From Methanothrix sp. (GTDB lineage: Archaea; Halobacteriota; Methanosarcinia; Methanotrichales; Methanotrichaceae), in assembly GCA_040770465.1 (NCBI GenBank), contig JAXGJB010000005.1, forward strand, positions 1 through 64,000: a DNA stretch of 64,000 nt, given 5' to 3'. Positions within the stretch are counted from its first letter, which is position 1; every line of letters starts with the position of its first letter. Made by a program: the position numbers and the translations under genes. Below, piece by piece: positions 23,665 to 46,004 of the stretch. A model generated the notes under the pieces. It did not search any database and had not been told where the DNA came from. It saw nothing but the letters and a program-made list of their open reading frames with translations.

Positions 23665-24369
23665 ATGAAATTAGTTCTCATCGCTTTGCTTTGTATGCGA
23701 GTATTTGGGCAGTGGAATCGGTCAAAGAATCACTTCCACTTAGACGCTTCAAAAGCCTGCTTGGTGATCATCGATATGCAGAATTTCTCCTGTGCTCCTG
23801 TGGAGGGAGAAGCCCTGCCTCACCTTGGCGAGGTCATCACTAAGATCAACAGGCTCGCTGATTTCTCCCGGAAAATAAAAGTCCCTGTCATCTGGGTGCG
23901 GCATAGCATCAACGTTACAGCGGATCAAGCCAGCACAGATGCAGGTTTATATCCGATCTTTCATAGTATAAACCAGTTAAGAAACGTGAGGAATCGGAGC
24001 AGTGGAACAGAGATATTCCCATCAATGAATTTTGATCGTGCCGTAGATCATGTGGTATTCAAGAACCGTTACAGTGCGTTTCTGTCAAATCCACCAGAGC
24101 TTCAGCAGAAGCTCGAATCGCTTAAGAAGACCCAGCTAATTATCGCCGGAATTGTCGCGAACGTCTGCGTAGAGTCTACGGTGAGGGATGCCATGCAGCT
24201 GGACTATGAGGTGGTACTGGTCTCAGACTGCGTCACCACCACTAACGAAACTCTGCTGGAGAGCACTATAAATAACACAATACTCTTTTTCGGAGACGTT
24301 CTGACAGCGGAAGAAGTCATGGAGGGTTTAAAAGAAAATGCGCCCAGAGTTGTTGCCCAACCACGATAA
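23665..24369 (+). CDS. Cysteine hydrolase (isochorismatase/RutB-like amidohydrolase)
   Basis: Catalytic triad motifs IIDMQN, FKNRYSAF, ANVCVEST. Confidence 0.9.
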   Translation: MKLVLIALLCMRVFGQWNRSKNHFHLDASKACLVIIDMQNFSCAPVEGEALPHLGEVITKINRLADFSRKIKVPVIWVRHSINVTADQASTDAGLYPIFHSINQLRNVRNRSSGTEIFPSMNFDRAVDHVVFKNRYSAFLSNPPELQQKLESLKKTQLIIAGIVANVCVESTVRDAMQLDYEVVLVSDCVTTTNETLLESTINNTILFFGDVLTAEEVMEGLKENAPRVVAQPR

Positions 24370-25375
24370 GCCTGATGCTTTGACCATCATGGCTTGGCCA
24401 TTAAGCACTCTGTGGGGTCAGGCATTGAAAGAATGTGTTTCAGATCCTTTTACAGCTGCCACTGGAATCCCCGTAAAGCATGTCGAATTCACAGGCGTGG
24501 ACGTTCCAATTGAACTGCTCAAGGCATGTCAGAAGGGTCAACGTCCTCCATGCGATGTCCTATACTGCAATACTATCCCTGCTATTCATATGGCTCAGTC
24601 CGGGTTCACCGATGAACTCAGCATTGATGAGTTTCCGATCCTTGGAAAGCTTAACTCTCGTGCTCAACCCGTTGCCAGAGGACTTTCAGGCTGGCCGTTT
24701 GTGATCGCATACGACGTCCGGTATGTGATGATGTACCGTGAAGCGGCCTTTCCTTGTGGTCCGCCGGATAGTTGGGAAGTGATGCTCGATCCCTCTTTGA
24801 AGGGACGAGTTTCGCTCTATCCCGGTGGAAAGGGCTTTTTCCCCATCGCCCAGATTCTAGGGGGCGGTACCCTTGACGACATCCCTTATAACATGAATCC
24901 CTGCTGGAAATTTCTGCGCTTGCTCCGCCCACAAATACGGATACTCGAGTTCAACAAGAAGATGACGGAACACATCCGTAAGGGAGAGATTGATGTTCAC
25001 TTCACAGTGCTTACAAATGTCATGCAATGGAAGGATCAGGGGTACGGAGTTTCCTGGCATGTACCTCAGGAAGGCACTTCTGTCGGTGACGATGCATTTG
25101 TTGTTCCTTCAGGTCTGCCCGAGTCTGTATGCCACACGGCAAAGCGCTACTTAGCTTTCGCTATGGGACGCAAAATCCAGCAGTCTTGGTGTGCCCGGCT
25201 TGGCCTCTGTCCTATGCATCGAGAAATCGAACGACCTGAACGATTTATCGGCGATTCAGCCTACCCTGACGCACCTGACGATTACTCAAACGCCCAATTT
25301 TTGCCAAACAGCATTGTTGAGAGATATGAACATGGAGTGTGGCGGGAACGATTTAACAAAATTTTTGATATGTAG
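24338..25375 (+). CDS. PotD-like ABC substrate-binding protein without an obvious signal peptide
   Basis: DPFTAATGIPV, PPDSWEVMLDPSLKGRV, VPQEGT. Confidence 0.75.
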   Translation: MRPELLPNHDKPDALTIMAWPLSTLWGQALKECVSDPFTAATGIPVKHVEFTGVDVPIELLKACQKGQRPPCDVLYCNTIPAIHMAQSGFTDELSIDEFPILGKLNSRAQPVARGLSGWPFVIAYDVRYVMMYREAAFPCGPPDSWEVMLDPSLKGRVSLYPGGKGFFPIAQILGGGTLDDIPYNMNPCWKFLRLLRPQIRILEFNKKMTEHIRKGEIDVHFTVLTNVMQWKDQGYGVSWHVPQEGTSVGDDAFVVPSGLPESVCHTAKRYLAFAMGRKIQQSWCARLGLCPMHREIERPERFIGDSAYPDAPDDYSNAQFLPNSIVERYEHGVWRERFNKIFDM

Positions 25376-25384
25376 GGGATTAAC

Positions 25385-26617
25385 ATGTTTCCACTTGAGA
25401 ACAAGAGAATACTCTCCTTTGAGACCTGGGGATCAGGAGCGTTCCATGCCGAACTGCTGGCCCTTATGGGCGCTGAAGTTATCAACATCGAAGATCCGCA
25501 GCAGCGAGGAAACCCCCTCCGCCGGATGGGGTCTCTTTACCTTGACGAGGAAAAGCAGGATAACGAGGGGAACGAATTCTGTCTTCACAACAAGAAAAGC
25601 CTGGCATTGGACATACGTACAGAAGAAGGTCAAGACGTCTTGCATAAGCTTCTTCCCGTATCGGATGCGGTGATCAATAATTTTCGTGGCTCACTTCCTG
25701 AGAAGCTTGGTATCACTTACAGACATCTTGCGCCTTATAACAAAGAGATCGTCTGCACGCATCTTTCCGGGTACGGGCGGGATAACGAACGAGCGAGCTG
25801 GCCGGGATACGATTTCCTGATGCAGGCGGAGACTGGATGGATGTCAATCACCGGGGAGCCGGATGCTATTCCAACCAAGGTGGGGGTCTCTGTTGTGGAC
25901 ATTCTCGGAAGCGTATATGCTGCCCTTTGCACTGTGGCAGCCTTATATCACGCTGAAATGACCGGAAAAGGCGGCGACGCTGATACTAACCTATTTGATA
26001 TAGCTCTGAACTGTATAAGCTATCAAGGAATGTGGTTTTTGAATGATGGATTCGTTGCCGGCAAACAGCCTCGCTCGGCCCACACGACTCAGGCCCCATC
26101 TCAACTTTATAGGACCGCAGATGGCTGGATTTACATCGCATGTCTCTCCCAGAAGTTCTGGGAATTGCTTTGTGAAAAAATCAATCGTCCCGAGCTGATA
26201 GAGGACAAACGGTTCCGCACTAACGAGAGCAGGTTGGAGCATCGCCAGGTAATAACAGATTTGTTTGACGAAATTTTATCGAGAAAATCCACGAAACAGT
26301 GGCTGGAGCTTTTATCGGGAACGATTCCTTGCGCCCCGGTTGATGATATAGCTCAAACCATGGAGAATCCTTTCGTTCTAAACACCGGAAAGATCATTAC
26401 CGTACCTTATGATAGAAGTTCGGAGCGAACTAGCGTGAAGTTCTTAGCTTCTCCATTCAGCTTCGACGGAGAGGCGTTCACCAGCTTCAAGATCGGTCCC
26501 AGACTCGGCGAAAACACTGCCGAGATCTTGGAATTTATTGGTTACGCAGAGGACGAAATCCAGAGAATGGATGAAAAGCAGATCATTATTCTCCCTAAAA
26601 ACCAAAATTTCAAGTGA
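25385..26617 (+). CDS. Family III (CaiB/BaiF) CoA-transferase
   Basis: LMGAEVINIE, NKKSLALD, NFR, GYDFLMQA, active-site SVVDILG, PRLGENT. Confidence 0.92.
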   Translation: MFPLENKRILSFETWGSGAFHAELLALMGAEVINIEDPQQRGNPLRRMGSLYLDEEKQDNEGNEFCLHNKKSLALDIRTEEGQDVLHKLLPVSDAVINNFRGSLPEKLGITYRHLAPYNKEIVCTHLSGYGRDNERASWPGYDFLMQAETGWMSITGEPDAIPTKVGVSVVDILGSVYAALCTVAALYHAEMTGKGGDADTNLFDIALNCISYQGMWFLNDGFVAGKQPRSAHTTQAPSQLYRTADGWIYIACLSQKFWELLCEKINRPELIEDKRFRTNESRLEHRQVITDLFDEILSRKSTKQWLELLSGTIPCAPVDDIAQTMENPFVLNTGKIITVPYDRSSERTSVKFLASPFSFDGEAFTSFKIGPRLGENTAEILEFIGYAEDEIQRMDEKQIIILPKNQNFK

Positions 26618-26876: not shown

Positions 26877-27122
26877 TTTAAAATGAATACCTCGCAGCTT
26901 GCTGCGGTTGGGATGGTCACAAAACCGTCTTAAGGATTGTTGCAGCCACGTGAATAGTCGAGCCGAGAAAGATGATGTCATACATAATCAGCAATTATGT
27001 TGAGACACAAGGAACCCAGAAGAAGGATGGCTACGAACAGATGAATTTGTTAGATTTCGAAAAGCTGATGATCGGGCGCGAACATGCCCCGCTGCTTGCA
27101 GCGGGGTGCGCTGTTTGACTAT
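26877..27122 (+). mobile_element. Internally deleted IS200-family element (~245 bp)
   Basis: Left hairpin CGCAGC-TT-GCTGCG (26893-26906), right hairpin CCCCGCTGC-TT-GCAGCGGGG (27087-27106); ORF 26972-27118 MMSYIISNYVETQGTQKKDGYEQMNLLDF... resembles a TnpA C-terminus with the YxxxQ motif. Confidence 0.78.
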
Positions 27123-27161
27123 CATGGGGTGGCGCTAAACAAATCATCTGGAGGTGAGAGG

Positions 27162-28295
27162 ATGAGAGACCTTTTCGATTTTGCAGACGAGCTGGGACCG
27201 ACGAAGATAATCCACGTCTACGAGCCGTCGGCGGGGCTCAGGGGCGTTCTGGTGGTGGACAACGTGTCCCGGGGACCCTCCATAGGCGGCCTGCGGATGG
27301 CGCCGGACGTGACATGCGAGGAGTGCATAAGGCTTGCCCGGGCGATGACCCTCAAGAACGCGGCCGCGGACCTTCCCCACGGCGGCGGCAAGTCCGTAAT
27401 CCGGGGCGACCCCAAAATGCCCAAAAAAGAGAAGGAGGCCAAGATCCGGGCCATGGCCTCTGCCCTGAGGAACGTCGAGGAGTACATCTTCGGACCGGAC
27501 ATGGGGACCGACGAGGAGTGCATGGCCTGGGTCAGAGACGAGATCGGGAGGGCGGTGGGGCTCCCCCGGGAGGTGGGGGGGATCCCCCTGGACGAGATCG
27601 GGGCTACTGGGTGGGGGGTCCGCCATTCGACGGAGGTGGCCCTCGAATATCTGGACCTCGACCTTGAAGGGGCGAGGGTGGCGGTCCAGGGGTTTGGAGC
27701 CGTCGGGAGGCACGCTGCCCGATTCCTCTCGGAGAGGGGCGCCGTCATGGTGGGGGCGGCCGACTCCTGCGGGACCGTCTCCGATCCCCAGGGGCTGGAC
27801 GTCGCAGCCCTGATCGATCTGAAGGGGGCGGGCAAAAGCGTGGTGGATTATCCGGGAGGAACGAAGCTCGATCGGGACGCGATCATCGACCTCGAGTGCG
27901 ACATCTGGATCCCGGCGGCGAGGCCCGACGTGATAAATGAAGAGAACGTGAACAGGCTCAAAACGAAGCTGGTGGTCCAGGGCGCCAACATCCCCATAAC
28001 CGAAGGGGCCGAGAAGATCCTCAACGACCGGGGCGTTTTATCGGTTCCCGACTTCATAGCCAACGCCGGCGGGGTGATATGTGCAGCCATGGAGTATCGG
28101 GGCTCATCCCGCTCCGAGACCTTCGCCGCCATCGAGGAGAAGATCCGCCGGAACACGGGAGCTGTCCTGGAGGCGGCCCGAGAAGAGGAGAAGCTTCCTC
28201 GGGAGGCGGCCTTCGACCTTGCGGTCTCAAGGCTCAAAAGGTGCATGGGGTACCGCAGGTGGTCGCTCTTCTCCTCTGCGCCCGGATATCTGTGA
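27162..28295 (+). CDS. Glu/Leu/Phe/Val dehydrogenase family protein
   Basis: MTLKN, GGGKS, GPDMGT, QGFGAVG, PDFIANAGGV; ATG after GGAGGTGA. Confidence 0.92.
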   Translation: MRDLFDFADELGPTKIIHVYEPSAGLRGVLVVDNVSRGPSIGGLRMAPDVTCEECIRLARAMTLKNAAADLPHGGGKSVIRGDPKMPKKEKEAKIRAMASALRNVEEYIFGPDMGTDEECMAWVRDEIGRAVGLPREVGGIPLDEIGATGWGVRHSTEVALEYLDLDLEGARVAVQGFGAVGRHAARFLSERGAVMVGAADSCGTVSDPQGLDVAALIDLKGAGKSVVDYPGGTKLDRDAIIDLECDIWIPAARPDVINEENVNRLKTKLVVQGANIPITEGAEKILNDRGVLSVPDFIANAGGVICAAMEYRGSSRSETFAAIEEKIRRNTGAVLEAAREEEKLPREAAFDLAVSRLKRCMGYRRWSLFSSAPGYL

Positions 28296-32574: not shown

Positions 32575-35500
32575 ATGACTCCAGGCCTCGCCTTCAGAAA
32601 CAATCACAACTTATTCTCCAACTACTATCTGGACGAAAGAGTCAAGCAGAATGATGAGTGGCGTGATGACGGAGAGGAACTCGACGAGGCTTTCAGGGGG
32701 ATAAAGAAACTCTTTAAAAAGAAGATCAAGATATTCCAGAATTGCAGCGAGGCGATGTTGGAAGACTCCCTGATAAGGCCTATATTCAGAATTCTCGATC
32801 ACCATTTCGGAATCCAGGAATCGGTGTATAAGGGGGCATACAGGCCAGATTACAGCTTCTTTCCAGACTTGGACAGCCTGGCAGAGGCTTACGGCCACAG
32901 GGAGAGCGACGATTTTTATCTCAAAGCCGTGGCGATAGGTGACGCCAAAGCCTGGAACGTATCTCTCGATAAAACCCAGAAGAGGGTTGGCGGTTTCAAC
33001 ATCCAGAACCCGAGCTATCAGATCGACATCTACCTTCGGAACACGCCGCCAGCGTGGGCGATTCTGACGAACGGGAGCCGCTGGAGGCTTTATCACCAGG
33101 ATACGAGCTACAGGCTTGACAGCTACTACGAGATCGATCTCTTAGACCTCGTCGAGAAGGGATCGTTGGAGGAGTTTAAGTATTTTTATCTGTTCTTCAG
33201 GCGCGATGCCTTCTTGCCTCTAAGGGACGGCAGATCATTTCTTGATCGGGTGAAGGAGGGGAGCGTAGCTTATACCCGAAAGGTGGGTGACGATCTCCAG
33301 GAGAACGTCTACAGGGCGATGAAGGTCCTGGCCGAGGGATTCTTGCAGAGCCGATCGAAAGGGCTCGATCCGGCAGAGTCCAGCAGGCTTATTGAGGAGG
33401 TCAGGGAAAACTCCCTGCGGCTCTTATACCGTCTTCTCTTCATCTTCTATGCGGAGAGCAGGGACCTTCTCAACGTCAAAAACGATCACTACAGACAGCT
33501 CAGCCTCCAGAGGCTGAAGATGGAGGTGGCGGAGAAACTGGACGGGCGAGAATTGCTGCTTCCGATCAGCACAACCTTCTGGGATCGGCTTTCCAACCTC
33601 TTCAGACTGATCAACGATGGGAGCGAGAAGTTCGGGATTTCGAGGAGCGAGTTTTACATCCCTCCTTATAACGGCGGCCTCTTCGACCCCGCTAAAAACC
33701 CATTCTTCACCGAAAACAGAGTTGGGGATCGGTTCATGGCGGAGGCGGTCGACCTCCTCGCCCGTTCAGACAACGGGGAGAAGAAGGTCTTCGTCGATTA
33801 CTCCTCCCTTGAGATCCGCCACCTGGGGTCGATCTACGAGGGGCTCCTCGAATATCGGCTGAGGGTCGCGGAAGAGGAGATGGTGGCGGTCTCCGAGAAG
33901 GGAGCTGAAAGGTGGCTCCCCGCGATGGAGGCCAGAGGCGATGCCAAGAAGGCGAGCGACCAGGTCTCTGCGGGCGGGGTCTACCTGGTGACCGACAAGG
34001 GCGAGAGAAAGGCGACGGGCTCCTACTACACCCCCGACAGCCTGGTAAAACACCTGGTGGAGAGCGCCATCGACCCCCTGATCAGGCCGAAGATCGAGGA
34101 GTGCATGATGAACTCCGGCGAGGAGTTCGTCGATTACCTCCTGTCCCTGAAGGTGATCGACCCGTCGATGGGGAGCGGCCACTTTCTGGTAGAGGCGACC
34201 GACCACCTGGCCCGGTATCTGATCCAGGCGAAGATGACGGCAGCCCCAGAGAATGAGGACGAAGAGGAGGTCGCAGAGCACGACATCCAGTGGGCGAGGC
34301 GAGAGATCGTCCGAAACTGCATCTACGGCGTGGACCTGAACCCCATGGCCGTCGAGCTTGCCAAGCTCTCCCTCTGGCTCAACACCGTCGCCTCGAACAA
34401 GCCCTTGAGCTTCCTCGACCACCACCTCAAGTGCGGAAACAGCCTAATCGGGGCCGACCTCGGGCCGGAGATGAAGGGCATCCTCCTCCTTCCGGCGGCG
34501 AGGGGAAGAGGCGGGCGGCGCGCCGGAGGCGCGGGCCGCAACGGCCAAAAAGAGAAGAACGGCTCCGACGCCGCCCAGTCGGCGCGGTGGATGCAGTTTG
34601 TCCTGAGGCGGCACGGCGAGATCTACAACGAGAAGATCTCCGGCCTCACAGCCAGGGCCGACGACGACCTGGAGACGGTCAAGTGGAAGGAGGAGGAGTA
34701 TAAGAGGCTCAGGGAGTCGGAGCACACGAGGCGGCTTGAGGAGCTGGCGAACGTCTGGCTCTCGACCTACTTCGGAAATGAGGTGGACGAGGAGGAGTAC
34801 GCAGACCTTCAGCACCAGCTCAGCGAGGAGAGCCAACCCGACTGGAGCACCATCAGGAGCTTGGAGTGGTTCGAAAAGGCCCAGAAGACCGCGGATAGGG
34901 TCCGGTTCTTCCACTGGGAGCTGGAGTTTCCGGAGGTCTTCTTCGGAGACGACCGGGGCTTTGACGTCGTCCTGGGAAACCCGCCCTGGGAGAGGATCAA
35001 GCTCCAGGAGAAGGAGTTCTTCGCATCCCGCGACCCCGAGATCGCCAAGGCCCCCACCGCCGCCGCCCGGCGCAAACTCATCGCCCGGCTCCCAGAGACA
35101 AACCCCTCCCTGGCGGCGGAGTACGAGGCGGCCCTCCAGCAAAGCCAGGACGAGAGCAACTTTATCCGCAACTCGGGCCGTTACCCTCTGACCGGCGTCG
35201 GCGATGTCAACGTCTACGCCGTCTTTGCGGAGCTGGCCCAGTCCCTGGTCAAATCCAAGGGAAGGGCTGGGATCATCGTTCCCAGCGGGATTGCGACGGA
35301 TTACACTTACCGGAACTTCTTCGCCGATTTGATGGACAAAGGCAAGCTGATCAGCATCTACGATTTTGAGAACCGAGAAAAGCTCTTTCCTGCCGTGGAT
35401 GGCAGAATGAAGTTTTCCCTGCTCACAACTACCGGCGGAGGAGTCACAGCAGCAGACTTCGCATTCTTCCTTCACAACATGGAAGACTTCGCCGATGAAG

Positions 35501-36633
35501 AGCGCCACTTCACCCTCAGTCGAAAGGATCTATCTCGGATTAATCCGAACACAAAAACCTGTCCGGTATTTAGAAACCGGAAAAACGCAGAATTGACGCG
35601 CAAGCTCTACGAAGCTGCGCCAGTTTTGGTGAACGAAGTTTCAGGGGAGAATCTGTGGCAAATCTCCTTTTTAAGGATGTTTGACATGACAAATGACAGT
35701 TCCCTCTTTAGATCGAAGGAGAAACTGGAAGATGATGGATTTAGTTTGATAGGGAATAAATTTGTTTTAGATTATGAAGTCTATTTACCACTTTATGAAG
35801 GAAAAATGTTCATGCCGTATGATCATCGTTTTGCTCATGTAATTATCACTGATAACGTAGCTCGACCTGGACAGCCGGAGGTTTTAAGCGACGAGGATCA
35901 TCTTAACTATTATCATATGGTTATGCCGAGATTTTGGGTCAATTCTGCTAGAGTGAAAAAAGAATTGGGTGACGATTACCCGTTTGGTTGGTTGATTGGG
36001 TTCAAGAATGTCACCTCTCCGACAAATGAAAGAACCTTCTTGAGCACGATACTTCCAATATCAGGAGTGGGTAATTCCACGCCACTTATTTTACCAAGTT
36101 CAAAGGCTTTGGCGTGTGGGTCTTCTGCTCTTATCGCTAACTTGAACTCGTTTGTATTCGATTTTGTTGCTCGCCAGAAAATGGGAAATGTCAATCTCAA
36201 CTTTTTCATCGTTGAGCAGCTCCCCGTCATCCCGCCCGACAGCTACACCCCAGAGCTCCTCGACTTCATCGTCCCCAGGGTGGTGGAGCTGACCTACACC
36301 GCCTGGGACCTTCTCCCCTTCGCAGAAGACGTGCTGAAAGAGGTCGGGAAGGAGACCTGGAGCCGCTGGTTCCCGGAGAATCCCCCCGACGGCGAGGGGA
36401 AACCCGCGCCCTTCCGCTGGGACGAGGAGAGGCGGGCGACTCTCAGGGCCGAGCTCGACGGCCTGTATGCTCATCTCTACCAGCTCGACCGGGAGGACCT
36501 CGGCCAGATCCTCGACACCTTCCCGATCGTCAAGAGGAAAGACGAATCGAAGTACGGCGAGTTTCGGACGAAGAGGCTGGTTTTGGAAGCCTACGACCGG
36601 CTCGCGCCGCTGGGGTCCGGGAAGTGGCCTTAG
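32575..36633 (+). CDS. Type IIG (Eco57I-like) fused restriction endonuclease-m6A methyltransferase
   Basis: RPDY...IGDAK nuclease, LTNG, YNGGLF, GSYYTP, DPSMGSGHF (motif I), NPPW (motif IV), C-terminal RAELD. Confidence 0.9.
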   Translation: MTPGLAFRNNHNLFSNYYLDERVKQNDEWRDDGEELDEAFRGIKKLFKKKIKIFQNCSEAMLEDSLIRPIFRILDHHFGIQESVYKGAYRPDYSFFPDLDSLAEAYGHRESDDFYLKAVAIGDAKAWNVSLDKTQKRVGGFNIQNPSYQIDIYLRNTPPAWAILTNGSRWRLYHQDTSYRLDSYYEIDLLDLVEKGSLEEFKYFYLFFRRDAFLPLRDGRSFLDRVKEGSVAYTRKVGDDLQENVYRAMKVLAEGFLQSRSKGLDPAESSRLIEEVRENSLRLLYRLLFIFYAESRDLLNVKNDHYRQLSLQRLKMEVAEKLDGRELLLPISTTFWDRLSNLFRLINDGSEKFGISRSEFYIPPYNGGLFDPAKNPFFTENRVGDRFMAEAVDLLARSDNGEKKVFVDYSSLEIRHLGSIYEGLLEYRLRVAEEEMVAVSEKGAERWLPAMEARGDAKKASDQVSAGGVYLVTDKGERKATGSYYTPDSLVKHLVESAIDPLIRPKIEECMMNSGEEFVDYLLSLKVIDPSMGSGHFLVEATDHLARYLIQAKMTAAPENEDEEEVAEHDIQWARREIVRNCIYGVDLNPMAVELAKLSLWLNTVASNKPLSFLDHHLKCGNSLIGADLGPEMKGILLLPAARGRGGRRAGGAGRNGQKEKNGSDAAQSARWMQFVLRRHGEIYNEKISGLTARADDDLETVKWKEEEYKRLRESEHTRRLEELANVWLSTYFGNEVDEEEYADLQHQLSEESQPDWSTIRSLEWFEKAQKTADRVRFFHWELEFPEVFFGDDRGFDVVLGNPPWERIKLQEKEFFASRDPEIAKAPTAAARRKLIARLPETNPSLAAEYEAALQQSQDESNFIRNSGRYPLTGVGDVNVYAVFAELAQSLVKSKGRAGIIVPSGIATDYTYRNFFADLMDKGKLISIYDFENREKLFPAVDGRMKFSLLTTTGGGVTAADFAFFLHNMEDFADEERHFTLSRKDLSRINPNTKTCPVFRNRKNAELTRKLYEAAPVLVNEVSGENLWQISFLRMFDMTNDSSLFRSKEKLEDDGFSLIGNKFVLDYEVYLPLYEGKMFMPYDHRFAHVIITDNVARPGQPEVLSDEDHLNYYHMVMPRFWVNSARVKKELGDDYPFGWLIGFKNVTSPTNERTFLSTILPISGVGNSTPLILPSSKALACGSSALIANLNSFVFDFVARQKMGNVNLNFFIVEQLPVIPPDSYTPELLDFIVPRVVELTYTAWDLLPFAEDVLKEVGKETWSRWFPENPPDGEGKPAPFRWDEERRATLRAELDGLYAHLYQLDREDLGQILDTFPIVKRKDESKYGEFRTKRLVLEAYDRLAPLGSGKWP

Positions 36634-36673: not shown

Positions 36674-37219
36674 TCAGCGATCTCCTTTGGTCGGCCGGGT
36701 GTAGCAGACCCCGTCGGGCCCCGCGATCATCGACATGGGCCTCGCCCTCTCAAAGTCCATCCCGCCCCCGGCGCTGAAGAAGTCGTCGTTCCCCTCCAGG
36801 TGGACTACCCTCCCTATGATCAGGGAGAACTTCTCCCTCAGGATCTCCTCTTCGAGGACGCACTCCATCCAAGCGACGCATCCCGCGATCCCCGAAGGTC
36901 TGACCTTCGCCGAGGGCCGGGGCACGAGGTTCGCCTCTTCGAACTCGTCGACCTCGGGCGGGAAGCTCTTCGCGCAGATCTCGACCGCCTCCGCCATGTC
37001 CACGGTGGGGACGTTGACGACGAACTCGCCGGTCTCCCGGATGTTCTCGAGGGTGTCTCGCTTGAGCCAGGAGGCGATGGCGATCTCGTCCAGAGGCCTC
37101 AAGATGGGCATGATGCAGCCCCAGGGGGCGGCGTTTCTCACGCCATCCTTCGATATCGTCGATATGAGGACCACCGGCATCGGCAGGACCTGTCCTCTCA
37201 TGTTGGGGTTCAGAATCAT
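36674..37219 (-). CDS. Flavin reductase-like FMN-binding protein
   Basis: PMPVVLIST, NAAP, DTLENIRETGEFVVN, WMEC. Confidence 0.9.
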   Translation of the reverse strand: MILNPNMRGQVLPMPVVLISTISKDGVRNAAPWGCIMPILRPLDEIAIASWLKRDTLENIRETGEFVVNVPTVDMAEAVEICAKSFPPEVDEFEEANLVPRPSAKVRPSGIAGCVAWMECVLEEEILREKFSLIIGRVVHLEGNDDFFSAGGGMDFERARPMSMIAGPDGVCYTRPTKGDR

Positions 37220-37309: not shown

Positions 37310-38854
37310 CTACACTCCCACAAAGGAGAGCTTGTTCAGGGCTATCGGAATGCCCAGAGCCATCCCGTTGTAGGTGTAGTAGAGCTCGACCTGGCCGTCA
37401 TGAGCGACGAACGACTCAGTGTAGTAGAGGCTGAGGGCCGGAACGTCCTCGGCGTAGAGGACCTGGGCCTGGTCGATCAGATCGTGCCGGGCGCCCTCAT
37501 CGGTCTCCGTCACCTGCTCCTCCAGAAGGGCCGTCAGCTCGGAGTTGTCGTCGTACCGGGCGCTGTTGAAGCTATCCATGTCGATGGTGTTGCTGGCGAG
37601 GAAGTTCGGATCGCCGATAACCCCACCGTGACCGCTCACGGCCAGGTCGAAGTCCCACTCTCCGACCTTGGAGTCGACGGTCTTCGAGTCCATGGTCCGG
37701 AGGTCGATGTCGATTCCAACGGCCTCCAGGTCCGCCTCGATCAGCTCGCCGATCCTCTCGGCCTCTGCATCACCGCCCTTGACGAGAAGCTGAATCTGCT
37801 GGCCGTCGTAGCCCATATCATCGAGAAGCTCCTCGGCCTTCGCTGGGTCGTGGGGGTAATAGTCGTCCATCTCGGGGTTGTACCAGGCGTTGTCTGGGGG
37901 CACAAACCCGGGGCTTCCAGCAAGGCCGTAGCCGCGGCCCGCGATCTCCACCAGCTCGTCCCGGTCGATGGCGTAGGCGAGGGCCTGCCTGAACCTCGCG
38001 TCCGAGATCGGCTCCTTCTGATGGTTGATCATCAGCTTGTAGTTCCACCAGTGGGCAGGAACCTCCAGGATCTCAAAGTCGTCCTCCAGCTCCTCGATCA
38101 TCTCGGGCTCGATGGGAGCGGTATCCACGTTCCCCTGCTGAAGCTCCGCCGCGGCGTTGGGGGCCGAGATCTTGACGAAGATCAGCTCACTGACCATCGG
38201 CGCTCCCAGATAGTAGTCCTGGTAGGCGACGTACCGATAGGTTCCCTGGACCATGTCATAGTCGTCAACATTCAGGGTGTAGGGCCCGGTCCCCACCAGC
38301 GCATCCTGCTCCCGATAGTTCACTGGATCGTCGACATCCGCCCAGATGTGCTCGGGGAGGATGGGAAGGGTTCCTCCCACCTGGTCCAGGAAGGGGGCGT
38401 AGGGCGCGGAGAGGGTGAGCCTCACCGTCAGGTCGTCGAGGGCCTCGGCGCTCTCGATGATCGCTGAGTCGACCCACTGGTAGGGGTGCTCTTTGGTGTA
38501 GTCGACGGTGAAGACCACGTCGTCGGCGGTGAACGGTTCGCCGTCGTGCCAGGTGACCCCGTCCCTCAGATGGAAGATGTAGACCTGGTCACTCTCCATA
38601 TCCCAGGTCTCGGCCAGGGCTGGAACGTACCCAGCATCATCCTTCCAGACCAGGGTGTCGAAGAGAAAGCTCATCCTCGTATAGCCAGGCCCCCGGGAGT
38701 AGTGGGCGTAGGGTGAGGGAAATCCCCAGTCTCCGGTGGTGTCGGCCACGGTGTAAACCGGAACCGAGCCGCTCTCGTCAGAGGCGGCGGCAAGACCGGC
38801 CACAAGCAGGACCAAAAGCCCTGCCGCCAGTCCCAAAGCGTGCGAATATCTCAT
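37310..38854 (-). CDS. Family 5 (peptide/nickel) ABC substrate-binding protein, orphan in this window
   Basis: Signal peptide; LRDGVTWHDGEPFTADDV, VGTGPY, RQALAYAIDR. Confidence 0.92.
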   Translation of the reverse strand: MRYSHALGLAAGLLVLLVAGLAAASDESGSVPVYTVADTTGDWGFPSPYAHYSRGPGYTRMSFLFDTLVWKDDAGYVPALAETWDMESDQVYIFHLRDGVTWHDGEPFTADDVVFTVDYTKEHPYQWVDSAIIESAEALDDLTVRLTLSAPYAPFLDQVGGTLPILPEHIWADVDDPVNYREQDALVGTGPYTLNVDDYDMVQGTYRYVAYQDYYLGAPMVSELIFVKISAPNAAAELQQGNVDTAPIEPEMIEELEDDFEILEVPAHWWNYKLMINHQKEPISDARFRQALAYAIDRDELVEIAGRGYGLAGSPGFVPPDNAWYNPEMDDYYPHDPAKAEELLDDMGYDGQQIQLLVKGGDAEAERIGELIEADLEAVGIDIDLRTMDSKTVDSKVGEWDFDLAVSGHGGVIGDPNFLASNTIDMDSFNSARYDDNSELTALLEEQVTETDEGARHDLIDQAQVLYAEDVPALSLYYTESFVAHDGQVELYYTYNGMALGIPIALNKLSFVGV

Positions 38855-39168: not shown

Positions 39169-41037
39169 ATGGCCAAAGCCGGAGCCTCGCCGCTCGAAGT
39201 GATTCTTAAATACCATAAGATTGATATTAAATACTCAGACATGGCGAGCAGATGGCAAAAATGCTGGGATGAGGCCCCAGAGATACACCTTCTCCTGAAG
39301 GGGAGCGAGAGCTTGGAGGCTGCCCGAGAAGTAATCGTGAGCTATCTTCAGTCGTTGGACTGGACCTACCGACGGGAGGTCGCCGAGATCGATTCCTGGG
39401 ATTACGTCCTCTTCAAAGAGGCCGTAGAGTGCCTCAAGAACATCTTCTCTCCCAAAAATGAGCGGCTGGCAAAGACCTCCTCTCTGGAGCGGCTCTGGAG
39501 GGCCGCCTCCGATGGAGACGCCGAGGTGGCCGACGACTTCGTCGACGAGTTCTTCCACCTCTTCAAGGCGGTGAAGGTCCAGTCGGAGGTCTACCCCTCC
39601 ATGCTGATGGAGGGGATCGAGGTCCCCGACTTCGAAAAGTACGAGGGGAGGGAGGCGGGTCGGAGGCGGTCCGACTACCTGGACGAGATGAGCCGCCGGA
39701 TGGACGAGCACCTTTCAAGGTACAAGAGCGGCCTAGACCCCGAGGTCGCGAAGAGGAGGGCAGAAAATAAGGCGAGGATCCTCGCGGTCCTCGACGCCGA
39801 TCCTGACGAGTGGGACGACTGGAGGTGGCAGTTCCGAAACGTCTTCAAGGACGAAGCGGGGCTTGAGACGATAAAAGAGATCATCAGCCTCAGCCCGGAG
39901 CGCGAAAGGTCGATAGGAATGGCTCTGGAGAACGGCATTCCCTTCGGCGTCACCCCCCACTACCTCCACCTGATGGACACTGAGCCCAGCGATCTGGACT
40001 TCGCCGTGCGGCTCCAGGTCTTCCCGCCCAAAAAGTACGTCGAGAAGATGATCGCCCATAGGAAAGATCGAAATTGGGCCTTCGACTTCATGCGAGAGCA
40101 CGACACCTCCCCGACGGACCTCGTCACCCGGCGCTACCCCCGGGTCGCCATCGTCAAGCCCTACGACTCCTGCCCCCAGATCTGCGTCTACTGCCAGAGG
40201 AACTGGGAGATCACCTCCCCCTTCATGCCCTCGGCGATGGCCTCGATGGCGGAGATCGACGCCGCCCTCGACTGGTATGCAGAGCACGACGCGATGATGG
40301 ACGTCCTGCTCACCGGGGGCGACCCCCTGGTGATGAGCGACGATCTCATCGACAAGATCCTCGGCCGCCTGGCGGAGATCCCTCACCTCATAAGCATCAG
40401 GATCGCCACGCGAACCCCGATAACCGTCCCCCAGAGGATAACCGAGGAGCTCTGCGAGATCTTCGGGTCCTACCACGAATTAGGTAGACGCAGCCTCTGC
40501 GTCGTCACCCACTTCATGCACCCCTACGAGGTGACCCCCGAGACCCTGGAGGCGGTGAAGAGGATCAGGATGCTGGGGATGGACGTCTACAACCAGCAGG
40601 TCTTCACCTTCGCCAACAGCAGGCGCTTTGAGACCGCTGCCCTCAGGGTCGTCATGAAGAAGATCGGGGTCGACCCCTACTACACCTTCAACATGAAGGG
40701 GAAGTCCGAGATGGAGGAGTACGCCGTACCCATCGCCCGGATCCTCCAGGAGCGAAAAGAGGAGGCCCGGCTCCTCCCCGGCATATTCAGGACCGACGAG
40801 CCGGTCTTCAACGTCCCGTTCCTTGGAAAAGACCACCTTCGGGCCTGGCAGAACCACGAGATCATAGCCATCCAGCCCGACGGCAGGAGGACGTACCGGT
40901 TCCTCCCTTGGGAGAAGAACATCGTCCAGGTCAAGCCCTACATCTATGACGACGTCACCATCGGAAGCTACCTCGAAAGGCTGAGAGAGCGGGGCGAGGA
41001 CCCGGAGAAGTACAAGAGCATATGGTACTACTACTGA
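39169..41037 (+). CDS. KamA-family radical SAM 2,3-aminomutase with long N-terminal extension
   Basis: WDDWRWQ, TPHY, RRYP, CPQICVYCQR, LTGGDPL, THFMHP, GK (PLP lysine 554); start could be 39241. Confidence 0.88.
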   Translation: MAKAGASPLEVILKYHKIDIKYSDMASRWQKCWDEAPEIHLLLKGSESLEAAREVIVSYLQSLDWTYRREVAEIDSWDYVLFKEAVECLKNIFSPKNERLAKTSSLERLWRAASDGDAEVADDFVDEFFHLFKAVKVQSEVYPSMLMEGIEVPDFEKYEGREAGRRRSDYLDEMSRRMDEHLSRYKSGLDPEVAKRRAENKARILAVLDADPDEWDDWRWQFRNVFKDEAGLETIKEIISLSPERERSIGMALENGIPFGVTPHYLHLMDTEPSDLDFAVRLQVFPPKKYVEKMIAHRKDRNWAFDFMREHDTSPTDLVTRRYPRVAIVKPYDSCPQICVYCQRNWEITSPFMPSAMASMAEIDAALDWYAEHDAMMDVLLTGGDPLVMSDDLIDKILGRLAEIPHLISIRIATRTPITVPQRITEELCEIFGSYHELGRRSLCVVTHFMHPYEVTPETLEAVKRIRMLGMDVYNQQVFTFANSRRFETAALRVVMKKIGVDPYYTFNMKGKSEMEEYAVPIARILQERKEEARLLPGIFRTDEPVFNVPFLGKDHLRAWQNHEIIAIQPDGRRTYRFLPWEKNIVQVKPYIYDDVTIGSYLERLRERGEDPEKYKSIWYYY

Positions 41038-41166: not shown

Positions 41167-42186
41167 TTATAGTCCTCTCATCCTCCTTCTATGAAGAGCG
41201 GTCAGGGCCACCGAGATCGCGGCAAGGAGGATCCCGAAACCTGGAATTCCTCCCCCTTCAACTTCCGGAGACTCCTCCCGCGCATACTCCTCGACCTCCA
41301 TCGGGCTTGCCTCCATTTCAGCAGCAGCTTCCTCTACTGGCGCCTCCTGCATCACGAAACCTTTGGTCTTTATATCCTTGGACTCGATCCTTTGGCCCTC
41401 CTCCATCATCATCTCGGGCTTGAGGAGGACGTAATCTTCACCCTGTCCCACGATGGACGCATTCCTCCAGATCAGGACCTCCGCCCGGTAGTTGTACTGG
41501 TCTGGAACCGACAGGTTGACGCTCCTGATCACCGTTCCCTGGGGCGGGATCTCGCCGATGTTCATCTCTTTCTTATCGGCGACGAGACCGGAATCAACCT
41601 CTCTTGCCTTCACCTCGATCCTGTAGTCGGGGCTTGGAGTTGGGCCGACGTTGGTGAAGTAAATGTCAGTTTGGATCCTCACGGTACCATTTTCGGCCTC
41701 CTTCACCATGAAGTCCATACCACCTATCCTTACGTTCATCACATCGACGTCGGCGGTCAGACTCTCCAGATTGTAGACCGTCCTCGAAGCTGTGCTCCTC
41801 TTCTCATCCTCCTCAAAGAGGGTCGCCTCAATCCTGTAGGACCCCTTCTTTGGAAGCTCCAGGGTGTTGGTGATGTTTGCAGTCGTTCCCCTCTCGATTG
41901 GACCCATATCAGATCTGACCTGGGTCTCAAGCAGGTTGTTCTTCGTCTCGTAGGCCTTCAGGAGAAGGGAGGCGTTCTTGCTCGTCAGCCTACCCTGATT
42001 TTCGACGTAGGTGGTGACGTTGATCGTCACCGTGGCCCCTGTCACCTCTTCGGCGGACAGGTCCATCTCAGCGATTTTCAGGCCCTTGACCGAATCGGAG
42101 CTCTCTGAGCAGCCGCTGGATGCCAAGGCCGCAAATATGGCGAGCGCCAGCAGCGAGTATAGGATCTCCTTTGGCAGGTTTCTCAT
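41167..42186 (-). CDS. PGF-CTERM sorted surface protein
   Basis: N-terminal signal with ASSGC; C-terminal IPGF-TM-HRRR. Confidence 0.85.
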   Translation of the reverse strand: MRNLPKEILYSLLALAIFAALASSGCSESSDSVKGLKIAEMDLSAEEVTGATVTINVTTYVENQGRLTSKNASLLLKAYETKNNLLETQVRSDMGPIERGTTANITNTLELPKKGSYRIEATLFEEDEKRSTASRTVYNLESLTADVDVMNVRIGGMDFMVKEAENGTVRIQTDIYFTNVGPTPSPDYRIEVKAREVDSGLVADKKEMNIGEIPPQGTVIRSVNLSVPDQYNYRAEVLIWRNASIVGQGEDYVLLKPEMMMEEGQRIESKDIKTKGFVMQEAPVEEAAAEMEASPMEVEEYAREESPEVEGGGIPGFGILLAAISVALTALHRRRMRGL

Positions 42187-42549: not shown

Positions 42550-44268
42550 TCAATCCCTGCCCAGATGCCTCATCAGATCCACGAGGCCCAGGGTGTTTAG
42601 GACGTCTCCTCTCTCCAGCCACCCCCGCCTTGCGGTCTTGACGCCGTACTCGATCGCCGATAAGCCGCATGTGCTGTGGGCGTCGGTGTTGATCGCGAGC
42701 TTCACCCCCAGCTCCTTCGCGCGCCGCGACCAGCGGTCGTTCAGGTCGAGCCTGCTCGGGTGAGAGTTGATCTCCATGGCGGTGCCGGTTCTCGCCGCCG
42801 CCTCCAGGACCCGCTCCATCTCCACCTCGTAAGGCTCGCGCTCTCCGATCTTTCGCCCGGTGGGGTGGCCGATGACGTCGACGTGTTCGCTCTCCATCGC
42901 CGAGATGATCCTGTTTGTCATCTCCCTCTCCCGCTGGTTGTAGGCGGAGTGGACCGAGGCGACGACGACGTCGCACAGCTCCAGGATCTTGTCTGGATAA
43001 TCGAGCTTCCCGTCGGCCCTGATGTCCACCTCTGTCCCCACCAGGACTCTGAAACCCTCCACCGATTCGTTCAAACCCGCGATCAGCTCCATCTTCTCGT
43101 TTAGCCTCTCTTCGGCGAGGCCGTTTGCGATCCCAAGCCCCGGCGAATGGTCGCAGATCGCCATGTACTCGTAGCCGAGGGCCTGGGCTGTCTTGACCAT
43201 ATCCTCGATGGAATGGCGGCCGTCAGACCAGTCGCTGTGGACGTGAAGGTCGCCCTTGATCTCCGAGACCTCGACGAGCCTTGGCAGACGCCCTGCCAGG
43301 GCTGCCTCCACCTCACCCTGGTCCTCCCGGATCTCTGGGGGTATCCAGTCCATCCCCAGATGACGGTAGAGATCCTCCTCCCGGTCGAAGAAGAGCTCAT
43401 CGCCGGTGGCGACCCTGGAGAGGGAGTACTCGGAGAGGGAGTAACCCTTTGAGAGGGCTACCTGCCTCAACTTCACGTTGTGCTCCTTGGAGCCTGTGAA
43501 GTACTGGATCACAGTCCCGAAGGACCGGGGATCGACGATCCGCAGGTCCACCTGGACCGTCTCCTCCACGATGACCGACGCCTTCGTCGGCCCCTTCATC
43601 AGGACCTCCTCCACCGCCGGGAGCTCGACGAAGGCCCGGATCGCCGCCGCAGGCTCGGTCGAGGTCGCCAGGATGTCGATGTCACCCACCGTCTCCCGCC
43701 CCCTCCGCAGAGACCCTGCCAGGTTGAGGTTTCCGATTCCCTCCACCTTCCTCAGCTGGCCGAGGATCTCCTCGGCGAGGGGCAGCGCCACCCCCAGAGG
43801 GATTCTATCGCTCCGCTTCTTCCATCTCGAAATGGCCTTGAGGATGTTCTTCTCGGAGGTGGGGCCCATTCGGGGGAGGCGGCGGACCCGGTGCTCCCTC
43901 GCCGCCTCCTCCAGCTCCTCGACGCTCGATACCCCCAGCTTCTCATGAAGCATCGAGATGGTCTTGGGACCAAGGCCGGAGATCTCCAGAAGCTCGGCCA
44001 TCCCCGGTGGCGTCTCCCGGAAGAGACGGTCGTGGGCCTCGATCTTTCCGGTTTCAAGAAATTCCGAGATCTTGCCGGCGATGGCTTTTCCCACGCCTGG
44101 GATCGACTCGAGGTCGCCCCGGCGGCTGAACTCTTCCAGATCCTCTTTCATCGACTCCACCGACCGAGCCGCCCTCCGGTACGCTACGACCTTAAACCCG
44201 GTCTCTCCCCGCAGCTCCAGAAGGTCCCCCATCTCTCGGAGGAGGCGGGCGACCTCATCGTTCTTCAC
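42550..44268 (-). CDS. polX: DNA polymerase X-PHP fusion
   Basis: HhH PGVGK, GSLRR, GDID, VDLR, FTGSKEHN; PHP motifs HVHS, DH, GHP, TDAH. Confidence 0.95.
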   Translation of the reverse strand: MKNDEVARLLREMGDLLELRGETGFKVVAYRRAARSVESMKEDLEEFSRRGDLESIPGVGKAIAGKISEFLETGKIEAHDRLFRETPPGMAELLEISGLGPKTISMLHEKLGVSSVEELEEAAREHRVRRLPRMGPTSEKNILKAISRWKKRSDRIPLGVALPLAEEILGQLRKVEGIGNLNLAGSLRRGRETVGDIDILATSTEPAAAIRAFVELPAVEEVLMKGPTKASVIVEETVQVDLRIVDPRSFGTVIQYFTGSKEHNVKLRQVALSKGYSLSEYSLSRVATGDELFFDREEDLYRHLGMDWIPPEIREDQGEVEAALAGRLPRLVEVSEIKGDLHVHSDWSDGRHSIEDMVKTAQALGYEYMAICDHSPGLGIANGLAEERLNEKMELIAGLNESVEGFRVLVGTEVDIRADGKLDYPDKILELCDVVVASVHSAYNQREREMTNRIISAMESEHVDVIGHPTGRKIGEREPYEVEMERVLEAAARTGTAMEINSHPSRLDLNDRWSRRAKELGVKLAINTDAHSTCGLSAIEYGVKTARRGWLERGDVLNTLGLVDLMRHLGRD

Positions 44269-44399: not shown

Positions 44400-45200
44400 T
44401 CAGACGAGATCGTCGATGTGGGTCATCTCCCCGATCTCAGTGAGGCCGCTTATCGATTCGGTCTCGATCCGGATCCCCCGGCTCATGGCGGCGGCGACGA
44501 TGTTCGTTCCGCCGACGAGGGATAGTCCCACATGGTCCCGCTCCACCGAGACCCCCAGGACGTTCATGTTTGGATCCCCCAGGTCTAAAACCCCCGCGAA
44601 CCCGACCTCTGCGAGAACATCGAGCTTCTCCTCGATCCTCTCCAGCGCCAGCATCGGAGCCTCCTGGAGGTTTCCCAGGATCCTGCCGGTCCCGGTCTCC
44701 ATCATCTCCACGACTGAGGTCAGCTCCTGGCTGATGAGGACGTCGATCGGATCGATGGTTGTGGCCCAGTACATCAGCATATCCGTGAACCGGACCGGCT
44801 CGCGGTCGATCACCTCGATCACCCCCCCGCCCCGGGGCCTCACGGGAACCCCTGCCTTGAGGAGGACTCCGCTGACGGTGATGCTGCAGGCGGACATGAT
44901 CTTGGCCCGGTCCCCCACCGTCTCCACCTTGAGGTAGGGGCTGACGGCGAGGCCGCTCTCTATGACGTCCCGGAATATCCGAAGGGTGGGCCCCAGCATA
45001 TCAAGATCCACCATCGATGTGTTGGTGATGATCTCGCCCTTCATCCTCCGGGGGTCGAAGCTCACCTTATGCATCAGGTTCTCTATTCTGCTCAGGGAGA
45101 AGACCAGGGGCTTCAAACCTATCACCGAATCCGTCTTGCTGCAAGGCAGGACCAAACTTGGGGGATCGACCGCGGCACGGTATCCATCAAGGTAGCTCAT
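44400..45200 (-). CDS. NrpR regulatory-domain (DUF128) protein lacking HTH, NrpRII-like
   Basis: [26 protein letters not shown]...TTIDP, GGTN. Confidence 0.75.
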
Positions 45201-45266
45201 CCTTTAAATACGCTGGAGATGAGGCGGGAAAGCCGTCTTATACCACCTCTTACATACTTGGCCAAG

Positions 45267-46004
45267 ATGTTGCGCCAGAGGTTCGTGCTCGATACCACAG
45301 CCCTAACCGACTCCCTCGCCTGGGAGGGGGAGGGTTGCACCAGCATCTGCGAGGGGATGAACGCCATACTCGACTGCGTCGCCGAGGCGAGGCTCCACCT
45401 GGGCATCAGCTGCTACATCCCCTACCCCTCCGTCTACAACGAGATCAGAGACTTCGTCAACCACAACGAGTGCGACGAAGCGGTTCTGATTAAGGTAGAC
45501 ACGTGGCTTGTCAAGATGACACCGGACCGCTACGAGGTGAAGATACCCTCCAAGGTATTTTATGAGTACGTCTACTACATGCGAAGCCGGATCAACAAGG
45601 GGATGAACGTCGCTGAGGAGGCGGTCTGGGAGGCGGTCGCGAGGTGCATCGCCTTGAGCGCGGCGGAGGGAGACCTCACCCCGATGAAAGGCGAGATTGA
45701 GAGGGAGGCGGTCGGCGGGATCGTGAGGAAGTTCAGGGAGAAGTACAGGAGCGCCCTGAGGTACGGCATCCTCGACAGCGCTCCCGACATCGACATCCTC
45801 CTCCTGGCAAAAGAGCTGAACGCCGCGGTGATATCCCAGGACCTCGGCGTTCAGAGGTGGGCGGAGCAGCTGGGCCTCCGTTACCTGGAGGCGAGAACCT
45901 TCCCCGTGATGATAAAAGAGTACCTCAGCCGGGCGAGGGCGATCCAGAAGAACGACGGCCTTCCCCTCTACATCCCGCCTTCGGGGGACGACGATACCCC
46001 CTGA
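45267..46004 (+). CDS. Protein-only RNase P (HARP, UPF0278 PIN family)
   Basis: [45 protein letters not shown]. Confidence 0.9.

Follow-up and report, generated by a model that had tools for sequence, protein, structure and literature searches.

A long-form KamA-family gene of Methanothrix sp. as a candidate archaeal-type glutamate 2,3-aminomutase

The window, a stretch of 64,000 nucleotides from Methanothrix sp., carries on its forward strand an open reading frame of 622 aa at 39169..41037, and its presence was confirmed. The true start is probably the internal methionine M25, at 39241 rather than 39169, because homologues are mostly 598 aa long (covering 96% of the 622-aa query among the 120 matches listed) and because open frames within the genus, which range from 601 to 637 codons, often have just 601–603. 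Motif and domain residues are numbered on the 622-aa form. The features of the gene, a family-specific N-terminal domain, a KamA-family core and a family-specific C-terminal region, are collected in Table 1.

Table 1. Features of the long-form KamA-family gene, in window coordinates
Feature	Position	Strand	Residues or basis
Long-form KamA-family aminomutase CDS (probable start)	39241..41037	+	598 aa + stop
All-helical N-terminal domain, family-specific	39241..39798	+	residues 25-210 of the 622-aa form
KamA-family radical SAM/PLP aminomutase core	39778..40827	+	TIGR00238, phmmer, Foldseek
CPQICVYC, predicted [4Fe-4S]-binding CxxxCxxC, followed by Gln343-Arg344	40171..40194	+	residues 335-342
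Lys510 codon, LAM Asp293 position (first distal substrate-binding residue)	40696..40698	+	alignment
Asn548 codon, second LAM Asp position	40810..40812	+	alignment
Lys554 codon, predicted PLP-binding lysine	40828..40830	+	alignment with GGGGK (AblA-type) and GLGK (bacterial EAM)
Family-specific C-terminal region of ~68 residues with WYYY end, replacing the LAM_C region	40831..41034	+	long-form conservation

The protein belongs to the KamA family, with 328.8 bits against TIGR00238 (cut-off 199.2) over residues 204-553 and 330.9 bits in a search of the whole genome. An earlier note, made from the letters alone, had listed a CxxxCxxC motif, RYP, a lysine at 510, an asparagine at 548 and a PLP lysine 44 residues beyond K510, and all of these lie where it had placed them (RYP at residues 322-324, PYYTFNMK at 503-510, VFNVP at 546-550, K554 as the PLP lysine). 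The same note held that Lys and Asn occupy the two sites at which lysine 2,3-aminomutase (LAM) has Asp, and alignment with LAM bears this out, with Asp at neither position. K510 pairs with the Asp of PYYIYQCD, chain position 293 of LAM PDB 2a5h (phmmer, E 2.8e-42). In a MAFFT alignment with an AblA protein that is above its own cut-off (P0227, 638 > 525), N548 pairs with the Asp and K554 with the Lys of VVDAPGGGGK, residues which we take to be D330 and K337 in LAM numbering. N548 and K554 also pair with the N....K of a bacterial glutamate 2,3-aminomutase (EAM) that is likewise above its cut-off (P0205, 693 > 650). All of the 105 long-form members (105/105) have the Cys triad, Q343 and R344, as well as Asn at the 548 position and Lys at the 554 position. 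The 510 position is Lys in 102/105 and Gln in the other 3, so there is some drift at this site. The residue that follows the Cys motif is Gln in bacterial EAM-like proteins and mostly Thr in LAM-like ones.

The equivalog model with the best score was that for glutamate 2,3-aminomutase (TIGR04368, 207.9 bits), ahead of AblA (172.2), the Arg-aminomutase (163) and EpmB (109.6). The cut-offs were passed neither for bacterial EAM (650) nor for AblA (TIGR03820, 525.4) nor for EpmB (TIGR03821, 369.3). Many close homologues bear the name lysine 2,3-aminomutase, as in the JGI-derived annotations of relatives, and in its fold and cofactor motifs the protein matches LAM. That the enzyme acts on lysine is nevertheless extremely improbable: both epsilon-amine-binding Asp residues are replaced, the AblA score lies below its cut-off, and an Asp/Asp-type KamA is encoded elsewhere in the genome. 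This separate short KamA (L002 1375-2472) reaches 449.6 bits with the AblA model, below the cut-off of 525.4, and the two KamA forms are therefore not redundant copies. A whole-genome search (94.85% complete) did not find ablB (TIGR03827), and a Pfam search of the neighbouring genes upheld the earlier statement that no ablB, efp or epmA partner is adjacent.

An AF2 model of the whole protein (pLDDT 92, pTM 0.91) has a LAM-like fold, and its top Foldseek match is LAM 2a5h (E 8.3e-22, TM-score on target 0.76). This structure was the sole PDB match by sequence and by fold; an EAM structure was not among the PDB matches. LAM residue 11 aligns with residue 209 and the start of bacterial EAM falls at about residue 172. 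The extra N-terminal region, previously put at ~200 aa, is real and forms a helical domain of ~185 aa before the core. It can be aligned throughout the long-form family, is helical in AF2 and has a pLDDT of 84 when folded alone. The domain matches no family in the Pfam copy searched and has no Foldseek PDB match at E <= 0.001 (best E 1.8), and a wide search with VIA-align gave a best Z of 5.9, in the range reached by generic helix bundles. An ESM Atlas lead pointed to Pfam 38.1 DUF8427 with a score of only 0.82. The C-terminal region is also conserved throughout the long-form family. Pfam LAM_C is not matched there, and the short KamA of the same genome does match it.

Most of the stretch is contained in just two runs (shares 0.85 and 0.82), which belong to one anaerobic-digester study and may represent the source sample; runs from other habitats with smaller shares were left out of account. 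Two RNA libraries of the same study have one contig each that is 100% alike to the gene, of 213 nt at 40675-40887 and 42 nt at 40156-40197. These contigs are no more than a hint of transcription, since DNA carry-over is possible and contigs cannot show transcription; RNA cover is absent over the remaining parts of the gene, which proves nothing about transcription.

The similarity to the Methanococcus long forms is at the level of orthology. The protein is 46% identical to an M. maripaludis long form (P0415) over 597 columns, residues 3-598 against 8-594. In the tree, a branch with SH-aLRT 100 sets 25 long-form sequences apart from all other KamA proteins, and the clade takes in two M. maripaludis C5 copies, M. 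vannielii, MJ0634, Methanotorris igneus and Methanothermococcus proteins. Of 40 Methanococci genomes, 22 have full-length long-form matches. Within the clade, well-supported subclades separate the window protein from the M. maripaludis proteins. The subclade of the window protein contains Methanotrichaceae, Thermoplasmata, Altiarchaeales, MJ0634 and Thermococcus, and Geoglobus is also near.

A glutamate 2,3-aminomutase of M. maripaludis was reportedly described by Tunckanat et al. in 2022 (Biochemistry 61:1077), and is said to carry an N-terminal extension of ~160 aa and to be backed by evidence in vivo. We take this enzyme to be locus MmarC7_1783; the proteins matched here come from other M. 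maripaludis records (strain C5, strain KA1 and multi-strain records). Identity to the closest protein with an experimental link is just ~46%, and that protein sits in another long-form subclade. No mention of the locus tags MmarC7_1783 and MJ0634 was found in the literature searched. A preprint cites Tunckanat et al. 2022 for beta-glutamate osmolyte production in archaea. Judged from its relatives and signature residues, the window gene probably encodes a long-form (archaeal-type) glutamate 2,3-aminomutase and is a candidate beta-glutamate synthase. Homology supports the proposal of the earlier note that the enzyme is an acidic-substrate, glutamate-type aminomutase; the novelty which that proposal implied does not stand, the M. 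maripaludis enzyme having been published in 2022.

The long-form family spans anaerobic archaea and bacteria and is carried by at least 597 species genomes; many of these organisms are non-halophiles, and many fermentative and sulfate-reducing bacteria are among them. Clustering of the ORFs around 80 loci yielded no conserved neighbours: the best cluster occurs in 13/80, at varied distances and on varied strands. Since the family is wide in non-halophiles and its neighbours are unconserved, an osmolyte role is not implied by context. This spread among non-halophilic anaerobes, the placement in different subclades at 46% identity to the M. maripaludis proteins, the conserved N-terminal domain with no fold match and the Gln found for Lys510 in three members would also fit a long-form aminomutase whose subclade uses something other than free L-glutamate. 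The substrate could then be a different amino acid, acidic or polar, or else a residue on a protein or cofactor, with recognition by the N-terminal domain. We regard such a substrate as unlikely: the candidate substrate and cofactor positions compared (K510, K512, N548, K554, Q343, R344 and T382) are all identical between the subclades, no conserved partner gene at the 80 loci indicates a protein or cofactor substrate, and the subclade contains MJ0634, whose host M. jannaschii presumably accumulates beta-glutamate.

With L-glutamate as substrate, a mechanism can be outlined from LAM and from EAM biochemistry. The [4Fe-4S] cluster held by CxxxCxxC would reductively cleave SAM to give a 5'-deoxyadenosyl radical. 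L-glutamate would be bound as an external aldimine on PLP, which would rest on Lys554, with its alpha-carboxylate held by Arg344. The gamma-carboxylate would be bound by Lys510 and Asn548, possibly also by Lys512, where LAM has two Asp for the epsilon-ammonium of lysine. The radical would take the hydrogen from C3, the amino group would move from C2 to C3 via an azacyclopropylcarbinyl radical, and beta-glutamate would be released.

Beta-glutamate is accumulated by Methanothermococcus thermolithotrophicus and Methanotorris igneus, according to a 2005 review (PMC1224877), which also describes the methanogen beta-glutamate pool as metabolically static. Both genera carry the long form. The paper describing Methanocrinis gives ectoine as the osmoprotectant and has 0 mentions of glutamate and aminomutase, its method having targeted ectoine alone. 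Ectoine is the one solute reported to date for Methanocrinis/Methanothrix, at about 1.5 mg per g dry weight, and ectoine synthase is present in the genome studied here. In the present organism, a methanogen of the Methanocrinis/Methanothrix group that uses acetate, the product of the window enzyme would most likely serve as an anionic compatible solute beside ectoine.

At 27084..28295, 11 kb upstream, there is a gene for glutamate dehydrogenase, with unrelated genes on both strands between, and an NrpR-domain gene resembling a nitrogen regulator lies 3.4 kb downstream. Perhaps, then, the enzyme is a glutamate 2,3-aminomutase with a metabolic role, in which beta-glutamate is an intermediate or a store of nitrogen or carbon, or in which the reverse reaction allows its utilisation. 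The occurrence of the family in fermentative and sulfate-reducing bacteria and the ectoine synthase already in the genome agree with such a role, as do these two genes. We hold it to be quite improbable, given that the dehydrogenase gene is separated by unrelated genes, that the 80 loci show no conserved adjoining gene for a catabolic partner, for instance a ligase or lyase specific for beta-glutamate, and that the methanogen pool is described as static. A compatible solute is the role we prefer.

Bacterial glutamate 2,3-aminomutase is reportedly the subject of work by Ruzicka and Frey in 2007. In a quick free tree, the bacterial EAM-like proteins fell inside the short LAM-like group and not beside the long form. 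A tree constrained to keep the bacterial EAM-like proteins in one group with the long form had a log-likelihood 44.7 above that of the free quick-search tree (p-AU 0.952), for a group that was set by motif and model score but named after the first tree, and with long branches involved. At this p-AU for the joint clade, one origin of the Lys/Asn signature is not rejected by the sequences compared. An independent, convergent origin of Lys/Asn in the long form and in bacterial EAM was also considered and was dropped, because the constrained tree was the better one by this margin.

A wider and more tentative proposal, which we rate as possible but somewhat doubtful, is that beta-glutamate may have been overlooked as a major anionic solute in Methanocrinis/Methanothrix. 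On a broader view, the long form, its N-terminal domain possibly regulatory or ion-sensing, may be a marker of beta-glutamate synthesis for hundreds of lineages of anaerobic archaea and bacteria, far outside the marine methanogens. If this is true, the enzymes of bacteria and archaea would come together in a single K/N-type clade.

Like the window protein, the M. maripaludis long form falls short of TIGR04368 (251.4 bits vs 650), and the long form is not captured by any model in NCBIfam release 20.0. The generic naming of these proteins follows from this, TIGR04368 giving the window protein only 208 against 650. Relatives indeed appear in the sources as 'lysine 2,3-aminomutase' or 'KamA family radical SAM protein', the mis-annotation that had been predicted. 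The main value of this work is the correction of the annotation for the window protein and hundreds of relatives. If the protein is a glutamate 2,3-aminomutase, as is probable, beta-glutamate would be expected as a second compatible solute in the Methanotrichaceae, acetoclastic methanogens that are of global importance in digesters and sediments. The pathway can be sought elsewhere with the signature CVYCQR, PYYxFxxKGK and VFNVPxxGK. On sequence grounds the gene is most likely an ordinary further member of an archaeal enzyme family already described, and, with the enzyme class in print since 2022, it raises no new question of biology.

Compared with LAM (KamA/AblA; 2a5h, TIGR03820), the window protein shares the radical SAM/PLP fold, CxxxCxxC, the PLP lysine and an Arg two residues past the last Cys. 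It differs in having Lys/Asn for Asp/Asp and extra N- and C-terminal regions, and no ablB was found beside it or elsewhere in the 94.85%-complete genome. With bacterial Eam (TIGR04368) it has in common the Lys at the Asp293 site, the Asn at the second Asp site, the Gln after the Cys motif and a TGGD motif instead of SGGD. The two are 33% identical over 343 columns, and bacterial Eam, at ~420 aa, is without roughly the first 150 residues; the long form has a loop ahead of the PLP lysine that is shorter by one residue, and a different C-terminus. Relative to the M. maripaludis long form, the window protein is nearer to MJ0634, Thermococcus and Geoglobus, its gene is solitary with salt-related neighbours absent, and for its host, one of the acetoclastic Methanotrichaceae, no report of beta-glutamate was found. 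The likeness to the M. maripaludis long form extends over the whole chain: a helical N-terminal extension, a KamA core and a C-terminal tail with WYY(Y/F) as its last residues, together with CVYCQR, TGGDP, the Lys/Asn/Lys signature, KGK and the same pattern of NCBIfam scores.

The open frame for a KamA-family aminomutase with an N-terminal extension (a long form) that the earlier note described in the window, and all the motifs named there, were borne out exactly. The true start is most likely M25 at 39241 rather than 39169, because most of the 120 close homologues listed are 598 aa long (covering 96% of the 622-aa query) and several open frames within the genus have only 601-603 codons. Residue numbers of motifs and of the N-terminal domain follow the 622-aa form.

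Positions of the long-form aminomutase, its motifs and other genes of the window
Feature	Position	Strand	Remarks
Glutamate dehydrogenase (GDH) gene	27084-28295		Pfam; past a low-G+C stretch
Restriction-modification enzyme	32575..36633	+	single chain, 1352 aa; Eco57I, N6_Mtase and MmeI_Mtase domains; Type IIG/IIL-like; upstream
Flavin-reductase-like protein	36674..37219	-	Pfam; upstream
SBP_bac_5 solute-binding protein	37310..38854	-	Pfam; upstream
Long-form aminomutase ORF	39169..41037	+	622 aa, open frame as listed
RYP	residues 322-324	+	
CPQICVYC	residues 335-342	+	
PYYTFNMK	residues 503-510	+	K510 at nt 40696
VFNVP	residues 546-550	+	N548 at nt 40810
Lys554	nt 40828	+	44 residues past K510
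Surface protein	41167..42186	-	Pfam; two DUF7490, weak PGF-CTERM archaeal sorting signal; directly downstream
Family-X DNA polymerase with PHP domain	42550..44268	-	Pfam; downstream
NrpR-regulatory-domain protein	44400-45200	-	nitrogen repressor-like
PIN_5 ribonuclease	45069-46004	+	divergent from the preceding gene

The protein passed the NCBIfam KamA family model TIGR00238 (328.8 bits; cut-off 199.2) and none of the equivalog models, scoring 207.9 for glutamate 2,3-aminomutase (EAM, TIGR04368; cut-off 650), 172.2 for AblA (525.4), 162.6 for arginine aminomutase (600) and 109.6 for EpmB (369.3). The local Pfam copy gave only a sub-threshold Radical_SAM match. The sole solved relative by sequence is the lysine 2,3-aminomutase (LAM) 2a5h (E 2.8e-42), whose alignment pairs K510 with the Asp of PYYIYQCD (chain position 293); 2a5h is also the best PDB match (E 8.3e-22, TM-score on target 0.76) of an AF2 model built from 21 input sequences (pLDDT 92.0, pTM 0.91).

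We aligned the window protein, its genome's second KamA, 24 other long forms and 27 shorter KamA representatives (n = 53). At the Asp293 position, the second Asp position, after the Cys motif and at the GGD motif, the AblA representative P0227 (model score 638 > 525) reads PYYLYQCD, VVDAPGGGGK, CRHCT and SGGD, and the bacterial EAM P0205 (693 > 650) reads PYYIFHAK, IVNAPKGLGK, CRHCQ and TGGD. All 25 long-form rows have PYYxFxxKGK, V/I-F/Y-N-V/I-P-x-x-GK, CVYCQ (CDYCQ in one row) and TGGD. The Lys/Asn pair, the Gln past the cluster motif and the Thr ahead of GGD are therefore a signature common to the long form and the bacterial glutamate enzyme, whereas the lysine enzymes are without it. Among 105 long forms (107 rows besides the window protein, less a 195-aa fragment and a wrong-ORF locus), the Cys triad, Q343, R344, T382, N548 and K554 each occur in 105/105, while K510 is Lys in 102 and Gln in the remaining 3.

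The three Gln-bearing proteins, from Methanosarcinales (L016), Altiarchaeales (L081) and Myxococcales (L086) MAGs, keep the Cys triad, N548 and K554, and their substrate preference may be altered. Among the 50%-identity representatives P0136, P0145 and P0132, two full-length long forms lack CxxxCxxC and other catalytic residues and so are probably non-catalytic paralogues; in one representative that is intact, Leu takes the place of K510.

Residues 25-210 are kept throughout the long-form family and are predicted (AF2) to be all-helical. No model of the local Pfam copy matches this domain, and PDB searches brought up nothing convincing (best E 1.8 with Foldseek, best Z 5.9 with VIA-align). The ESM Atlas gave a weak pointer (score 0.82) to clusters of DUF8427 (Pfam 38.1), which bear the name 'lysine 2,3-aminomutase family protein'. 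The bacterial EAM N-terminus aligns with the last ~40 residues of the region, so the part that is truly extra amounts to about 150 residues, against the ~200 of the earlier note.

A full-length match was found in 22 of the 40 genomes searched from the class Methanococci, at 46-51% identity, and a short LAM-type match only in 2 further genomes. Exact look-up named MJ0634 (Q58051, 620 aa), long forms of Methanotorris igneus, Methanothermococcus and M. vannielii, and two M. maripaludis C5 proteins, one common to other M. maripaludis strains. With the M. maripaludis long form P0415 the window protein shares 46% identity over residues 3-598, as compared to 33% with bacterial EAM over 343 columns; P0415 and MJ0634 share its NCBIfam pattern, passing KamA and failing the EAM model. 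A quick IQ-TREE built on the core region (352 columns, 53 rows) puts the 25 long-form rows on one side of a branch supported at SH-aLRT 100. The first partners of the window protein are proteins of Methanocrinis natronophilus, Methanothrix, Thermoplasmata and Altiarchaeales, followed by MJ0634 and proteins of Thermococcus, Geoglobus and Bipolaricaulota (support 99); those of M. maripaludis, M. igneus and Methanothermococcus make up a separate subclade of the long form. One M. maripaludis genome (proteins named strain C5) carries two long forms, C1:1296253-1297983 and C1:571656-573398, plus a short LAM-type gene; the two copies (P0412, P0415) are distinct branches. From the work of Tunckanat and colleagues, MmarC7_1783 is said to be a putative aminomutase, extended at its N-terminus by ~160 aa, whose predicted substrate residues suggest glutamate, and its expression in a methanogen reportedly yielded beta-glutamate.

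Bacterial EAM-like proteins nested among short LAM-like proteins in the unconstrained quick tree. Constraining the tree to join the long form with 7 EAM-like rows raised the log-likelihood by 44.7 (p-AU 0.952), so that one common origin for the Lys/Asn-type enzymes is not rejected and is, if anything, favoured. Since the joint tree scored higher, we do not claim a convergent origin of the signature.

The long-form family comprises 140 representatives at E <= 1e-30 (50%-identity library) and at least 597 confirmed loci in one-genome-per-species contigs, among them Methanotrichaceae, Methanomassiliicoccales, Ignicoccus, Methanocaldococcus and Altiarchaeales as well as Atribacterota, Aminicenantes, Desulfobacterota, Anaerolineae, Bacteroidota and others. 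In some representatives the whole long form sits, as a fusion, behind an additional 150-580 N-terminal residues or is accompanied by extra C-terminal sequence: P0128 (822 aa), P0135 (1357 aa), P0139 (926 aa), P0142 (899 aa) and P0151 (876 aa). The 31 related genomes include 16 from the window's genus (own counted): 11 of these have a full-length long form and 2 a partial one, and in 3 (95, 81 and 89% complete) it was not found with the window query. A second genus of the family, represented by 1 genome, has it. It was not found in two further genera of the family, nor in the 12 genomes that represent two other families, 7 of which gave short-type matches only. The closest named relative among the matches listed is Candidatus Methanocrinis natronophilus (82% identity).

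The gene stands alone in the window, and across 80 diverse long-form loci no neighbour family recurred beyond 13. The aminomutase substrate would come from GDH, but the GDH gene lies 11 kb off with unrelated genes between. Window positions 22001-26000 have a lower G+C (0.50-0.51 versus about 0.59 elsewhere), and this stretch (listed together with 24338-26617) carries genes for a solute-binding protein, SBP_bac_8, and for a CoA-transferase of family III. In the ORF listing the NrpR-domain and PIN_5 frames share about 130 nt, so the start codon of one probably lies further in.

The genome's other KamA (L002 1375..2472; contig C11, about 47.3-49.4 kb with the following gene) is a short 365-aa Asp/Asp type scoring 449.6 with the AblA model, under the 525.4 cut-off; most genomes of the genus have short-type matches at similar scores. 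A D-Ala-D-Ala-ligase-like ATP-grasp gene (L002 2474-3481) follows after a 1-nt gap, at the place where GNAT ablB is the expected partner, which suggests that the pathway ligates beta-lysine (or something similar) instead of acetylating it. ablB was not found in this genome (94.85% complete). Ectoine synthase is present, which fits the ectoine (about 1.5 mg per g dry weight) in excerpts of the Methanocrinis description paper, where glutamate and aminomutase are unmentioned. Evidence that the window gene is expressed is limited to two short 100%-alike contigs, both from RNA libraries made in a single digester study; such contigs are no proof of transcription.

According to passages of a review, beta-glutamate is an osmolyte in Methanothermococcus thermolithotrophicus and in Methanotorris igneus (Roberts 2005, PMC1224877), and both genera have the long form. 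The same passages hold older evidence against an aminomutase route to beta-glutamate, which the title of Tunckanat et al. 2022 contradicts. A preprint cites that study for beta-glutamate made as osmolyte in archaea, and another paper shows that M. maripaludis S2 Mm902 was used in it.

We consider it probable that the window protein is a glutamate 2,3-aminomutase. The feature is real and its glutamate-type reading probably holds; the novelty implied in the earlier note does not, and the chief value of the finding is correcting annotation. The archaeal N-terminally extended glutamate 2,3-aminomutase class is already known, published in 2022, and the window gene, judged by its sequence, is a homologue of that enzyme in another methanogen family.
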